This document shows, piece after piece, positions 1,735 to 7,926 of a DNA stretch of 24,179 nt. A program made the translations under genes and the position numbers. Below the pieces are notes generated by a model. It had not been told where the DNA came from. It made no database searches and saw only the letters and a list, made by a program, of their open reading frames with translations. Every line of letters starts with the position of its first letter. The first letter of the stretch is position 1. Source of the DNA: Synechococcales cyanobacterium VAR_4_metabat_354 (lineage in GTDB: Bacteria; Cyanobacteriota; Cyanobacteriia; Cyanobacteriales; Chamaesiphonaceae); assembly GCA_031414775.1 (NCBI GenBank), contig JANOQI010000053.1:1-24179 (forward strand). Direction: 5' to 3'.

Positions 1735-1821
1735 ATCTAACGGCTCAAATCAGAGGCGGATAGTAACCTTGAACTCAGCACTAAGATCTCTCAACCGTCC
1801 GTTGCATTTGAATTGTTAGGC
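1735..1821 (-). repeat. Integron attC site (attC1, 87 bp)
   Basis: Minus strand reads GCCTAAC (R'', RYYYAAC)…GTTAGAT (R', GTTRRRY). The arms pair (CAAAT/ATTTG, CGG/CCG) with two unpaired bases on one arm. The brnA stop codon TAA lies inside R''. Confidence 0.85.
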
Positions 1822-2350: not shown

Positions 2351-2407
2351 TTACTCGACTCACCACACTCAGATAATGTAGCAGACGGAGGTTCATGTTT
2401 TATGTGG

Positions 2408-2782
2408 TCATGGCTGATATGGTGTGCCTTGATGAAACCTCATGATCCAACCACTTTCTGTCCGCGACCAAATAGAACTTCGTCTGGCGTATTCTACAAT
2501 GCTATCGTACTCAACCTGACTATTATAAGTAACCTGCGCTGTATTTTGAGCGAGCAGACGAATAGCAAGATTCGGCAGAGGAATTACCGCGTGGATTGGC
2601 TGCGAGTCTAATTGAATAATCCGATCGCGGGTGTAAACTCGTCCCGATCTGCCGAACTCAAAAAAATCGGCTGCGAACCGCTGTTCTTGAAAAGTTCGAT
2701 CAAAGCGCGTGAACTCGCGCCACATATCTTCTTCGAGCCGAGTTAGGATTACATGATCTTCTTCAGAAAGGAGGAGAGGCAT
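2408..2782 (-). CDS. DUF4440 / NTF2-like protein (first gene of a cassette)
   Basis: DFFEFGRSGRVY…RSSIW…WIMRFHQGT motif. Starts 30 bp after the R' box of attC2. Confidence 0.85.
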   Translation of the reverse strand: MPLLLSEEDHVILTRLEEDMWREFTRFDRTFQEQRFAADFFEFGRSGRVYTRDRIIQLDSQPIHAVIPLPNLAIRLLAQNTAQVTYNSQVEYDSIVEYARRSSIWSRTESGWIMRFHQGTPYQP

Positions 2783-2812
2783 GATTGGATTGGGAAGAAG
2801 TGTGTGGTTGAG

Positions 2813-2891
2813 GTCTAACGGCTCCGTTCACCCGCCGTAAACAATCTCTCAAACTCAACCAGCCAACTTGATACGGTCGGGTGCAGGGGAG
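2813..2891 (-). repeat. attC2, larger part (interrupted by the IS110 element; remainder at 4679..4687)
   Basis: + strand GTCTAAC-GGCTCCGTTCACCCGCCGTA…TACGGTCGGGTGCAGGGGAG. Same layout as attC1, including TCTAACGGCTC and unpaired T and C. Joining it to AT-GTCGGGC restores an 88-bp attC. Confidence 0.8.
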
Positions 2892-2910
2892 ACGACCACT
2901 AGAAAGACAG

Positions 2911-2968
2911 AGGAGACGACCATGCATGCGGCGACAGATTCATGTCTACTAACATATCGTTCGCTCCT
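2911..2968 (+). ncRNA. Extra target-binding-loop module (TBL-A) of a putative bridge RNA
   Basis: AGGAG/CTCCT and ACGA/TCGT stems; internal loop CCA-TGCATGCGGC // TACTAACATA; capping hairpin GACA-gattca-TGTC. Confidence 0.72.
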
Positions 2969-3016
2969 TACCCATAATTCTAAACCAGTTGAAGAAAAGC
3001 TTTAATTAAAAAAGCG

Positions 3017-3186
3017 GGAGAGATTGCCAGGATTAGAGGACGACCATGCAACGGAAGTCACTAGATGACTACTAACATATCGTATCGCCTCTAACTCTTT
3101 ATCCTACTCTCTTAACGAATTCTCAGGGAACAAGGAATCAACCTTTTCCATAATCTATTCGCGTGTGCAGGCGGCAAGCTCTCTCC
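3017..3186 (+). ncRNA. Putative IS110 bridge RNA (target loop 3033..3094, donor loop 3116..3161)
   Basis: Outer stem GGAGAGA-TTGCC / GGCAA-gc-TCTCTCC. Target loop guides TGCAACGGAA // TACTAACATA. Donor loop CGAAT/ATTCG and AAGG/CCTT stems with guide CTCAGGGA, identical to the IS right end (4669..4676). Confidence 0.82.
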
Positions 3187-3217
3187 GTACCATCAAAATC
3201 AATGGGATTAATCTACC

Positions 3218-4489
3218 ATGAGTATCGAAAACTATGTTGCCTATATCGGCATTGACTGGGCAGATCGTAAACACGATATTGCTCTCTATGATTGTGCCTC
3301 AGACACTTGGCAAGAATACATCATCAAAACCCGTCCCCAAGACATCTTAGATTGGGTCAATCAATTACGAACACGTTATGGAGAGGGACAAATTGCTGTA
3401 GCTATGGAACAGAAAAGAGGCCCTTTGCTATACGCCCTGTGCCAGTATGATAACTTGGTTCTCTTTCCTATCAATCCTCGCACCGTTGCCAACTACCGCA
3501 AAGCTTTCCAGCCTTCACGAGCTAAGTCTGATCCTGTCGATGCCCGTCTGCTAGTTGAATTGATGCAAAAGCATCCAGATAAGTTGGAGCGTTGGATCGC
3601 TGGCTGTCCTCGCACCCGTGCCCTCAGACAATGGGTCGAATCACGGCGGATGTTGGTAGGCGAGAAAGTCAGACTGACTAATCGCATCACGGCATCGCTC
3701 AAGTCTTATTTTCCTCAAGTCCTGGATTGGTTTGAGGATAAAGACACTCTGGTCTTTTGCGCTTTCATGGAACAGTTTCCCTCTGTGAAGGCCGCGCAAG
3801 CGGCAACCCCGGAACAATTAACCCAATTCTTTCGCTCTCATCAGGCTGGACGTAAAAGTGCTATTGCCCGTCGCATCCAACAAATCCAAGAAGCAGGACC
3901 TCCCCTGACAAACGATGAGGCTATTGTAGTTCCAGCCCAAGCGTTGACCTGTGCCTTGATTACCCTCCTGAAGGTAATTCTCACTCAACTGACAGAATTC
4001 AATGCCAAGATTACAGCTCTCTTTGAAACCATTCCTGATGCTGAATTATTCTCTACTTTGCCGGGAGCCGGGCCTCATCTAGCTCCCCGACTACTGGTCG
4101 CATTTGGCGCAGAAAGAAGTCGCTTTACTTCTGCTCAAGCCTTTATGAGTTATGTTGGCATTGCTCCTGTTAAAGAGGAAAGTGGCAAGAAACGATGGGT
4201 TCATTGGCGATGGTCTTGTCCTATTTTCCTCCGACAAACTTTCGTTGAATGGGTTAATCAATCTAGACGTTTTTCTTCTTGGTCACAAGCTTTTTACCAA
4301 CAGCAAAAACGCGCTGGAAAGACTCATCAAAAGGCTATTCGAGCACTGGCTTACAAGTGGGGGAGAATTCTTTGGCGTTGCTGGAAAGATAATATAGCTT
4401 ACGATGAGGAGAAGTACCTAGCTGCTTTAACACAAAAGAATTCGCCTCTTATCAAGTTGATGGAGTTTGAAAACAAAGAGCAACAATAA
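3218..4489 (+). CDS. IS110-family transposase/recombinase
   Basis: RuvC-like DEDD residues (YIGIDW, AMEQ, KSDPVD). C-terminal Tnp domain STLPGAG…FTSAQAFMSYVGIAP.KEESGK with the conserved serine. Confidence 0.96.
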   Translation: MSIENYVAYIGIDWADRKHDIALYDCASDTWQEYIIKTRPQDILDWVNQLRTRYGEGQIAVAMEQKRGPLLYALCQYDNLVLFPINPRTVANYRKAFQPSRAKSDPVDARLLVELMQKHPDKLERWIAGCPRTRALRQWVESRRMLVGEKVRLTNRITASLKSYFPQVLDWFEDKDTLVFCAFMEQFPSVKAAQAATPEQLTQFFRSHQAGRKSAIARRIQQIQEAGPPLTNDEAIVVPAQALTCALITLLKVILTQLTEFNAKITALFETIPDAELFSTLPGAGPHLAPRLLVAFGAERSRFTSAQAFMSYVGIAPVKEESGKKRWVHWRWSCPIFLRQTFVEWVNQSRRFSSWSQAFYQQQKRAGKTHQKAIRALAYKWGRILWRCWKDNIAYDEEKYLAALTQKNSPLIKLMEFENKEQQ

Positions 4490-4678
4490 CCTTCGGGAAC
4501 GGAATTAATTTAATTCATCAATTGCAATAAAATAGAAAATCCAAAGAATCTGTTTTGAGGTCAAGCTAATATTTTACAACTCACTTACAGGTAGGTTTCT
4601 TGTGGTTAAATAACTATGAAAATATAGTTAAAAAAGATGTTCAACTTTTACTATTGACTTCCGTCTACCTCAGGGACT

Positions 4679-4687
4679 ATGTCGGGC
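4679..4687 (-). repeat. attC2 remainder (R'' box GCCCGAC)
   Basis: AT-GTCGGGC directly follows the IS right end and corresponds to TT-GTTAGGC of attC1. It lies ~40 bp downstream of the 4727..5095 gene. Confidence 0.7.
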
Positions 4688-4726
4688 TGCTGAGAGTCAA
4701 GCAAGCACATCCGAAATCTACAGCCT

Positions 4727-5095
4727 CTAGTACGATCTCAACTTATAAACTGGCTCAATTGATACAACATTAGGATCATCCTCTAGGCGATTCAATATCT
4801 CACGGGGGATATTTGCAGTGAATATTGACGGACTAACTTGAGTACGAATCTCAACGCCAGAAGGTACATACCCCTCTGTGGAAACCTTCACTGTTGCCAC
4901 CAGAAAAGCTTCTCGATTCAAATCTCTAAGAGCTTCTCCACTTAACTTCAGCTTTGAATTTCCAGGGGGAACGTATTCAACCCTATACTGTGAGGTATTG
5001 TCATGTTTGTCTGAAGACATAGCGTATTTAGAGATAGGAAGAACTAGTATCAACGTTGAAACTATTACAATTATAGCTTTGTGCCATCTTTTCAT
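4727..5095 (-). CDS. Signal-peptide/TM protein resembling a stand-alone subtilase prodomain (I9-like)
   Basis: Hydrophobic N-terminus. The C-terminus IFTANIPREILNRLEDDPNVVSIEPVYKLR aligns by eye with the adjacent protease prodomain. Confidence 0.65.
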   Translation of the reverse strand: MKRWHKAIIVIVSTLILVLPISKYAMSSDKHDNTSQYRVEYVPPGNSKLKLSGEALRDLNREAFLVATVKVSTEGYVPSGVEIRTQVSPSIFTANIPREILNRLEDDPNVVSIEPVYKLRSY

Positions 5096-7248: not shown

Positions 7249-7926
7249 ATGAAATTAGTGGGCTATATTCGGGTATCAACGAATTCTCAGGCTGAAAACA
7301 CCTCTTTGCCAGAACAGAGGGAGAAAATCGAAGCTTACTGTAATGCTTTCGGTCATCAGCTAGTCGAAATTTTTGAAGAGGTACAGTCCGGCAAGGATTC
7401 AGCTGGCCGACCAATATTTGCTCAAGCCTTGCAGTCAGTCAAAACCAAAGCTGATGGTATCGTGGCCGTGAAGCTCGATCGGATCGCCAGAAATACTCGC
7501 GATGTTTTGGCACTGGTTGAAGATGTCTTGAAGCCTGATGATAAGTCTTTGGTATTACTGGATATTCAAGTTGATACCTCTACTGCGATCGGCAAGATGA
7601 TTTTGACCGTGATGGCTGCTGTAGCTTCTTTGGAGCGGGATACAATTATCGAGCGTACCCAAGGTGGGCGCAAAGCTAAAGCCAGTGGTGGTGGATATGC
7701 TTATGGCTCTCCGCAGTTTGGTAAGCGATCGATCGACAATGAATTAGTGGCCCATCATGGCGAGCTGGAGACCATTGAAATTATTAGGAGGCATCGCAAG
7801 TCCGGTAAGAGCTATCAGTCGATCGCAAAGTATCTCAACGAACATGGCATCAAAAGTAAGCGGGGTGGGCGTTGGCACCCGGAGACGGTTAGTGCAGTTT
7901 GTAAGCGACAGGCTATAAAAGTATGA
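7249..7926 (+). CDS. Serine recombinase (resolvase family with C-terminal DNA-binding domain)
   Basis: GYIRVST (catalytic Ser), SGKD..GRP, KLDRIAR, GKMILTVMAAVASLER motifs. Confidence 0.95.
   Translation: MKLVGYIRVSTNSQAENTSLPEQREKIEAYCNAFGHQLVEIFEEVQSGKDSAGRPIFAQALQSVKTKADGIVAVKLDRIARNTRDVLALVEDVLKPDDKSLVLLDIQVDTSTAIGKMILTVMAAVASLERDTIIERTQGGRKAKASGGGYAYGSPQFGKRSIDNELVAHHGELETIEIIRRHRKSGKSYQSIAKYLNEHGIKSKRGGRWHPETVSAVCKRQAIKV

Follow-up and report, generated by a model that had tools for sequence, protein, structure and literature searches.

An IS110-family element of cyanobacterial integron attC sites with two predicted target-binding loops for a single donor loop

Can a bridge RNA carry more than one target address? 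In published descriptions, the bridge RNAs of IS110-family insertion sequences (IS) are bispecific molecules in which a single target loop accompanies a single donor loop (Durrant et al. 2024, PMC11208160; Hiraizumi et al. 2024, PMC11208158). The question was raised by a contig of Synechococcales cyanobacterium VAR_4_metabat_354 (JANOQI010000053.1, positions 1 to 24,179 of the forward strand; these 24,179 nucleotides (nt) are called the window throughout), in which an IS110-family element seemed, from its letters alone, to combine one donor loop with two target loops bearing different guides. Every string and coordinate given for the loops and their stem in that original prediction was recovered in the sequence. 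Two loops of target type were present where one target loop and one donor loop per RNA would be expected, and a comparison of related sequences gave good support to the view that the locus encodes a variant bridge-RNA system with two putative target loops. The probability that the additional loop, termed unit A, is a working second target loop was put at roughly 60%.

The left end of the element comprises the following features.

2911..2968, + strand: unit A, the candidate extra target-binding loop (covariance model match of 68.4 bits; invariant columns much the same as in unit B; guide tracks insertion flanks). Stem AGGAG/CTCCT at 2911–2915/2964–2968; ACGA/TCGT at 2916–2919/2957–2960; left guide TGCATGCGGC at 2923–2932; hairpin at 2933–2946, with GACA/TGTC at 2933–2936/2943–2946; CTAACAT from 2949; right guide CTAACATAT at 2949–2957.
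2969..3016, + strand: A-rich linker from unit A to the core; its 3' half (...GAAAAGCTT.A.T.AAAAAG) is conserved in relatives.
3017..3028, + strand: 5' strand of the enclosing long-range stem, pairing with 3173–3186 (helix 5: 5/5 pairs change on both sides).
3033..3094, + strand: unit B, the core target-binding loop (model match of 81.7 bits; 5/7 compensatory pairs in the outer stem; RNA contig over 3017–3163). Stem TTAGAGG/CCTCTAA at 3033–3039/3088–3094; ACGA/TCGT at 3040–3043/3080–3083; left guide TGCAACGGAA at 3047–3056; hairpin at 3057–3069, with GTCA/TGAC at 3057–3060/3066–3069; CTAACAT from 3072; right guide CTAACATAT at 3072–3080.
3116..3161, + strand: donor-binding loop; closing stem 3116–3120/3157–3161; covarying inner hairpin 3132–3135/3142–3145; left guide CTCAGGGA at 3122–3129; right guide TTCCATA at 3146–3152.
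3173..3186, + strand: 3' strand of the enclosing long-range stem, supported by the covariation count.

The enclosing stem holds unit B and the donor loop, while unit A lies 5' of this core. The likeness of the two units was evident to a repeat finder, which returned two blocks common to both (D2, 19 nt, 95%; D10, 12 nt, 100%). A covariance model of the unit (R1, built from 28 units, with both window units among the training rows) produced exactly two matches in the 24-kb window, at 2908–2971 (68.4 bits) and 3032–3095 (81.7 bits). Rfam covariance models searched over 2400–5000 gave no match at E up to 1, and folding, which had been proposed as a check, was of no help, the single-sequence fold of 2870–3217 being unexceptional (z = -1.54); the case therefore rests on relatives. 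No terminator-like sites were found between the units, and the sole promoter-like match (2949–2978) was not conserved in relatives.

An alignment of 39 distinct two-unit left ends showed that invariant columns clustered in unit A, unit B and the donor loop, with almost none in the linker; unit A had about as many as unit B. The hexamers that follow AT(G/C)CA varied. In unit A the conserved positions were those of unit B and only the hexamer and hairpin loop changed, which is the pattern of a programmable loop. For the proposed structure, 86.7% of cells were paired, compared with 82.5% in shuffles and 39–54% when partners were slid, and 19 pairs changed on both sides, a number reached in 0 of 500 shuffles. 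These changes occurred in the enclosing stem (5/5), the outer stem of unit B (5/7) and the inner hairpin of the donor loop (2/4), among others. A structured, covarying RNA gene was thus present in the left end, upstream of the recombinase gene, and unit B and the third loop have, as predicted, the form of a canonical target loop and donor loop within a covarying stem.

The donor loop could be related to both ends of the element. Its left guide CTCAGGGA (3122–3129) was identical to the right end at 4669–4676, an identity already noted from the sequence, and comparison between clades showed that guide and right end change together:

Two-unit clade: left donor guide CTCAGGGA; right end CTCAGGG(A/C)CT.
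Single-unit clade: left donor guide CTCAGAGG; right end CTCAGAGGCT in four loci, with one-base variants in two.
L030: left donor guide CTCAGGGC; right end CTCAGGGCAT.

The right guide, TTCCATA, had been described as complementary to a TATGGA circle junction. The predicted junction in fact reads ...GGGACT-AT-GGGGAG, but pairing survives with TAT-GG of ...ACT-AT-GGGG, extended by G:U pairs. This is the weaker half of the donor match; because it needs G:U pairs and never varies, the right guide was regarded as compatible with the left end.

Relatives were collected from genomes (61 loci) and metagenomes (80 loci), and were mostly cyanobacterial. When target loops were counted with the covariance model, as the original prediction had advised, R1 gave 128 matches over 93 sources. 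Two matches, 113–225 nt apart on one strand, were found in 50 sources including the window; one was found in 24, none in 17 and three in 0, while in 2 of the 93 the two matches came from two separate elements. A model search of both strands of the right end (189 nt) found no unit there. A maximum-likelihood tree of 46 recombinases grouped the two-unit rows in a single clade of 21 (support 99/93), counting L101, whose unit A a text pattern had missed, with 7 single-unit rows as its sister clade. In relatives further removed (45–50% identity), which were mostly proteobacterial, one target-type and one donor-type loop lay within an enclosing stem. With a single target loop in both the sister clade and the distant relatives, the position of unit B is the ancestral one, and unit A is an added, derived copy. 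By alignment, tree and covariance model alike, unit A is an additional, clade-specific and conserved target-type loop with a guide of its own, and it is best read as having arisen once, by duplication in a cyanobacterial sub-clade, and as having been kept.

The target of these elements is the integron attC site, an identity that the original prediction lacked and that explains what two guides would be for. Among independent insertions, the left flanks were not sequence-level repeats; although unlike in sequence, they had a common design, in which an RYYYAAC box lay 80–110 nt upstream and was followed by a long, imperfect hairpin with arms that differ in concert from locus to locus, and then by T(G/C)CA-N6-(T)TT-AT adjoining the element. 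Right flanks continued from the ...CT-AT of the element with GTTAG in 21 of 30 instances and GTTAT in 6 (27/30 together), corresponding to a GTTRRRY box. The occupied target can therefore be written as ...T(G/C)CA-N6-(T)TT-AT, the IS, and AT-GTTAG. The 30 reconstituted empty sites folded as R''(RYYYAAC)...R'(GTTRRRY) hairpins with their boxes paired. The R''-side arm of the sites has neither the AT core nor the T-rich spacer. Single-unit elements of the sister clade insert into sites of this kind at an identical position, and this position, between L' and R', presumably adjoins the crossover point of the integrase.

The guides correspond to this design. Both units contain an unchanging CTAACAT(AT), complementary to (AT)ATGTTAG and hence to the core plus the conserved R' box; the 10-mer, which varies, reads in the same sense as the variable L' side. 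Insertion in L030 and L035 lay one base further from GTTAG, and their right guide had one extra base. attC sites combine conserved boxes with variable L regions, a kind of target family to which one fixed right guide and two left guides are suited.

The genome of the window also contains an integron integrase (C35:92343-93281; TIGR02249, 470 bits against a cut-off of 265, with one in-frame TAG in the match) and an attC-like hairpin 1.1 kb from it, near the contig end (C35:94390-94473). Small cassette-like genes (BrnT/BrnA, DUF4440) were found between or beside the sites. Unoccupied perfect targets were not found in this genome, and a strict R''/R' attC pattern search of the window found nothing; a looser reading of the window gave one further site.

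1735..1821, + strand: unoccupied attC-like site, ATCTAAC ... TGCATTTGAATT GTTAGGC, downstream of the BrnT/BrnA pair.

This site has TT where occupied sites have AT.

It had been proposed that the left guides could be compared with insertion flanks. This was done for 45 distinct insertions of two-unit elements; insertions with flanks below 24 nt were set aside, as was the copy in the window itself, whose flank is without AT. Two other copies in the window's genome were assigned the window's guides, and L092 and L101 were added to the set by eye. The left flank was fitted better by unit A in 25 insertions and by unit B in 17, with 3 ties; 'accessory', the term first applied to unit A, may therefore understate its part. 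Over 43 events, the mean score for unit A was 6.42, against 5.80 when shuffled (0/5000 shuffles as high), and that for the better of the two guides was 7.14, against 6.46 (0/5000). Unit A remained elevated where unit B fits poorly (n = 36; 6.61 against 5.91 shuffled; 0/10000 as high), as did unit B where unit A fits poorly (n = 22; 6.41 against 5.84; 24/10000). Hence left flanks matched unit A in some insertions and unit B in others, above shuffles, while on the other side CTAACAT agreed with 27 of 30 right flanks.

One guide position covaried directly with the flanks. NCCA flanks occurred in elements owning a TCCA guide in 8 of 13 cases, compared with 2 of 33 for NGCA flanks (Fisher p = 1.7e-4); the TCCA guide was that of unit B in 7 of these 8, and two of the five NCCA exceptions were mis-anchored TGCC strings. 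The flank of L077, a partial copy, equalled the unit A guide at 10/10 positions, that of L092 matched unit B at 9/10, and that of L101 shared the rare TGCC with its unit A. In L014, L015, L008 and L099, unit A had the hexamer kind usual for unit B, and the flank followed unit A. By eye, the five near-identical copies in the complete genome of Leptothermofonsia occupied A-like sites (L047, L062) and B-like sites (L026, L060, L064). Finally, L087 and L089 (genome G003) agreed in the guide of unit A and differed in the hexamer of unit B (GCGCCA and ACGTTA), which reads as the natural reprogramming of one loop only.

Twenty public sequencing runs held the stretch, of which two, from different studies, were metatranscriptomes (X19 and X20); their contigs were compared with 2700–4800. 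X19 provided a single contig of 155 nt that covered 3017–3163 without difference and nothing else of the 2.1 kb; because only this region was covered, the pattern is not one of uniform DNA carry-over. X20 provided a contig from a relative, comprising 85 nt of its unit B and linker, then 3112–3176 with five differences, then Illumina adapter, and also a piece of the recombinase gene (4317–4513). The core is present in RNA libraries as a short species.

Several observations weigh against a working second target loop, or limit what the comparison can bear. The RNA contigs gave no cover of 2886–3016, which includes unit A, or of most of the gene; such missing cover is not evidence of absence, because RNA ends cannot be located from contigs and libraries of this type often lose small RNAs. 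That neither contig extends 5' of 3017 hints weakly at an abundant RNA that starts at about 3017 and excludes unit A. Covariation of stems among homologs was evident in the enclosing stem and the outer stem of unit B but was thin in unit A (outer stem 1/5, hairpin 1/4); because its own stems hardly vary, the main support for the fold of unit A lies in conservation and in its likeness to unit B. Matches to the flanks were imperfect, the best score per insertion being 9/10 in 6, 8/10 in 12, 7/10 in 13, 6/10 in 12 and 5/10 in 2. Unit B over all 43 events had a mean of 5.84 against 5.64 shuffled (345/5000 as high), and was clear only where unit A fits poorly. The shuffles kept column make-up and ignored relatedness among elements and among attC sites, so that their significance is overstated. 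The spacer between 10-mer and core, usually of T, was 3 nt in 16 insertions, 2 in 16, 1 in 7 and 0 in 2; the target strings first predicted, with the 10-mer directly on AT, were therefore incorrect, real targets having 0–3, mostly 2–3, extra bases. The window copy is itself atypical, as its left junction, ...GGTCGGGTGCA/GGGG, lacks N6-TTTAT and its right junction reads ...ACT-AT-GTCGGGC instead of GTTAG; for this reason, its insertion could be assigned to neither guide.

Some of these points could be accommodated if unit A were not part of a guide RNA at all but a duplicated DNA segment (a protein-binding site, promoter element or decoy), with its likeness to flanks arising from a small number of attC sub-families. 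The start of the RNA contigs at about 3017 hints weakly in this direction. The stems of unit A barely vary and its 5' strand resembles the left subterminal repeat (D6), while the commonest guides and the commonest flanks both contain TGCATTGGG-like strings. Nevertheless, unit A conserves the same positions as unit B and varies only in the hexamer and hairpin loop, as a programmable loop would. Rare guides also matched rare flanks (TCGCGC in L077, TGCC in L101, GCGAGT in L014/L015 and GTGAGC in L047), flank agreement exceeded all shuffles (0/5000 and 0/10000), and decaying copies (L024) lost units A and B together. This explanation was considered improbable.

Slightly less probable again is that unit A is the working target loop while unit B no longer selects and is kept as part of the folded core needed by the recombinase, for example as a donor-loop scaffold or for excision. 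Such a division would agree with the better match of unit A at 25 of the 45 insertions, with its having the strongest matches (five at 9/10, and 10/10 for L077), and with the failure of unit B to rise clearly above shuffles over all events (345/5000). Against this, cognate unit B beats shuffles where unit A fits poorly (24/10000), and it is mostly unit B that accounts for the covariation of the TCCA/TGCA position with flanks. The flank of L092 agrees with unit B at 9/10 and the empty allele of the window's own site, seen in DNA run X5, equals the unit B guide at 10/10. The unit B hexamer differs between the near-identical copies L087 and L089, and single-unit relatives use a loop at unit B's position. 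That both units act jointly on one attC site, for instance one per arm or strand of the folded site, is very improbable: attC sites are imperfect palindromes that recombine in folded form and the units do have the same right guide, but the R''-side arm is without the AT core and T-rich spacer, only one guide fits at most insertions (8–9 against 5–6), and the single-unit sister clade uses the same position of the same kind of site.

Under the preferred reading, that of unit A as a second target loop, the core (about 3017–3186) would be an ordinary bridge-RNA design, with unit B and the donor loop closed by the long-range stem, and unit A, 5' of this core, would be a second target-binding loop, such that the bridge RNA of an active element has three guide loops. 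Both target loops would share the right guide CUAACAU(AU) and would differ in the 10-nt left guide U(G/C)CA-N6, matching the variable L' side of attC. Across the circle junction, the donor loop would bind the right end through CUCAGGGA and AT-GGGG of the left end through UUCCAUA. Synapsis would then join a recombinase dimer on a donor loop to a dimer on either of the target loops, and insertion would take place between L' and R' of two classes of attC site. In the IS621 synaptic complex, one bridge RNA molecule supplies the target loop and another the donor loop, and each of the loops holds a recombinase dimer (Hiraizumi et al. 2024, PMC11208158); because of this, a further target loop, in cis or on another RNA, needs no new mechanism. 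We infer that unit A is transcribed, bound and used. The odds seem about even that one donor loop serves two independently evolving target loops that address two attC families; these loops may be expressed differently. One possibility is that the core is made from integrated copies and that unit A occurs only on transcripts begun at the circle junction.

The remaining features of the element are as follows.

2886..4682, + strand: IS110-family insertion sequence, multi-copy; ends set by copies in the same genome that are 100% identical up to these points and then diverge.
2887..2895, + strand: left subterminal inverted repeat GGGAGACGA, with its partner at 4661–4669; resembles the 5' strand of unit A (repeat D6).
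3218..4489, + strand: recombinase gene, 423 amino acids (aa), with Pfam domains DEDD_Tnp_IS110 and Transposase_20.
4654..4680, + strand: right end, with -35-like TTGACT (4654–4659), subterminal repeat (4661–4669), left donor match CTCAGGGACT (4669–4678) and core AT (4679–4680); conserved in relatives.

The bounds follow from a search of the element's own genome, where both ends were 100% identical at four other contig ends (C30, C38, C50, C52), and they move the start from the 2888 first proposed to 2886. A partial copy, 90% identical, was internal to a contig. The left end measures 332 nt and the right end 189 nt. The final four bases, ATGT, are common to the element and its usual target (core AT plus GT), which leaves 4678 as the end of the element proper. 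The unitig that spans 2886–4682 in DNA run X5 had a depth of 155.6, compared with 5.9 for the flank. Assignment of the recombinase to the IS110 family was upheld by PF01548 (DEDD_Tnp_IS110, 3e-25, residues 10–166) and PF02371 (Transposase_20, 7.7e-17, residues 276–361), giving a DEDD (RuvC-like) domain followed by a Tnp domain in one protein. At 423 aa it is about 100 aa longer than the recombinase of IS621. As in that family, the element was multi-copy and site-specific, without target duplication and with the same core dinucleotide at both junctions (...TTAT/GGGG at left and ...CT-AT-GTTAG at right in relatives), except that the window copy's left junction is without AT.

The subterminal repeats matched at 7/9 positions by eye in the window, and both partners change together in relatives L021 and L026, where their length by eye was 10–12 bp (11–13 bp in the IS1111-attC group). 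The left terminus (2884–2898, subterminal repeat GGGGAGACGACCA) was identical to the 5' strand of unit A (2908–2922) at 14 of 15 positions and, in a transcript begun at the terminus, could compete for the 3' strand of unit A. At the predicted circle junction, TTGACT (4654–4659) sits 18 nt upstream of TATGGG, and a transcript from such a circle-junction promoter would contain unit A; no circle-junction contig was seen among the public-run contigs examined. Complementarity between unit B (3051–3064) and the right end (4651–4664), at 13 of 14 positions, was first taken for a donor contact and was rejected as chance, because it recurs only in the closest relative (L008) and overlaps the conserved TTGAC.CCGTC.

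The left junction of the window copy lies within part of an attC-like site.

2813..2885, + strand: left part of the attC-like site occupied by the window copy; R'' box GTCTAAC at 2813–2819, long imperfect stem, ...GGGTGCA.

A public DNA contig from run X5 contained the same left flank uninterrupted, running on as ACGGAATTGTTAGCAG, and it is in this empty allele that TGCAACGGAA, the unit B guide, is read at 10/10 positions. Neither this continuation nor any of the loose-end sequences from run X5 was found in the element's own genome. GTCGGG was present on both sides of the window copy (2813–2885 and 4681–4700). The atypical junctions suggest a later rearrangement or an off-register event, and the window copy was probably rearranged after insertion.

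Among relatives, L010 (~860–1010) and L038 had about 100 extra nt between unit A and the core, giving left ends of 433 and 416 nt. Two metagenome copies (L099:~840-865 and L104:~500-525) had an insertion of about 25 nt of one small repeat (…GC.ACGC.CACGCTACGCGA…) in the donor loop or unit B, which appears to be a miniature mobile or repeat element inactivating these copies. L116 contained single-unit elements at 98–161 and 2111–2174, in head-to-tail order at a distance of 2013 nt, and their left flanks were almost the same (TGTAGTGAGC/TGTAGTGAGT); the pair is a tandem insertion or duplication. Searches of other genomes for further copies added few insertions, there being only 1–5 copies per genome. 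The closest named plasmid relative was ISEsa2 (42%). In the window, a serine recombinase gene (Resolvase and Recombinase domains, 7249–7926) lies 2.5 kb from the element and adjoins a subtilase gene.

Compared with known systems, the element is closest in plan to IS621 and other IS110 bridge-RNA elements, in that the gene for the RNA lies in the left end and precedes that for a DEDD recombinase; the target loop consists of stem, left guide, stem-loop, right guide and stem; and the left guide has the sense of the left target top strand while the right guide complements the core and right target (PMC11208160, PMC11208158). It differs in having two target loops per donor loop and a long-range stem that encloses the core. 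The left guide of IS621 runs into the core, whereas here 0–3 nt intervene; the core is CT in IS621 and AT (or TAT) here, with subterminal repeats of 9–12 bp. A survey of 32,190 bridge RNAs describes, in its section 2.4, longer guides and not extra loops (bioRxiv 10.64898/2026.10.21.760802). Full-text searches of the literature, supplements excluded, gave no relevant description of a second, additional or multiple target loop, or of a bridge RNA with attC.

In its choice of site the element resembles the IS1111-attC group (ISKpn4, ISPst6, ISPa25), in which elements with DEDD transposases occupy one fixed place at one end of attC and encode a guide RNA alongside subterminal inverted repeats (Siddiquee et al. 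2024, PMC11187229). Here too, attC sites were entered at one fixed position, a likeness of habit. The seekRNA of that group lies downstream of the transposase gene, has its top-strand match 5' of the bottom-strand match and contains a single targeting module (PMC11187229); here, a doubled set of guides precedes the gene, with the two matches in reverse order, and the hosts are cyanobacteria. The duplication of non-coding material in the left end also recalls the tandem non-coding repeat expansion reported next to IS110 elements. Those repeats are recent (at least 95% identical and at least 50 bp) and were read as local expansion (bioRxiv 10.64898/2026.08.14.744561), whereas unit A is old, clade-fixed and has a diverged guide.

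For integron biology, the comparison defines a family of cyanobacterial elements that splits attC between L' and R'. A second target loop, if kept for use, would show that bridge-RNA architecture can carry more than one address, and suggests how an element may widen its range when its target family, like attC, is variable. It would then be the first multi-guide bridge RNA, a natural template for two targets per recombinase and donor, and a ready-made design for multiplexed bridge recombination. In this respect it resembles the guide arrays of CRISPR and TIGR-Tas, where a single effector is served by several guides that share a fold and differ in their spacers. Unlike those arrays, it has no sign of guide acquisition and no tandem repeats with a processing signal; it has only two units, each of them a complete two-guide loop.

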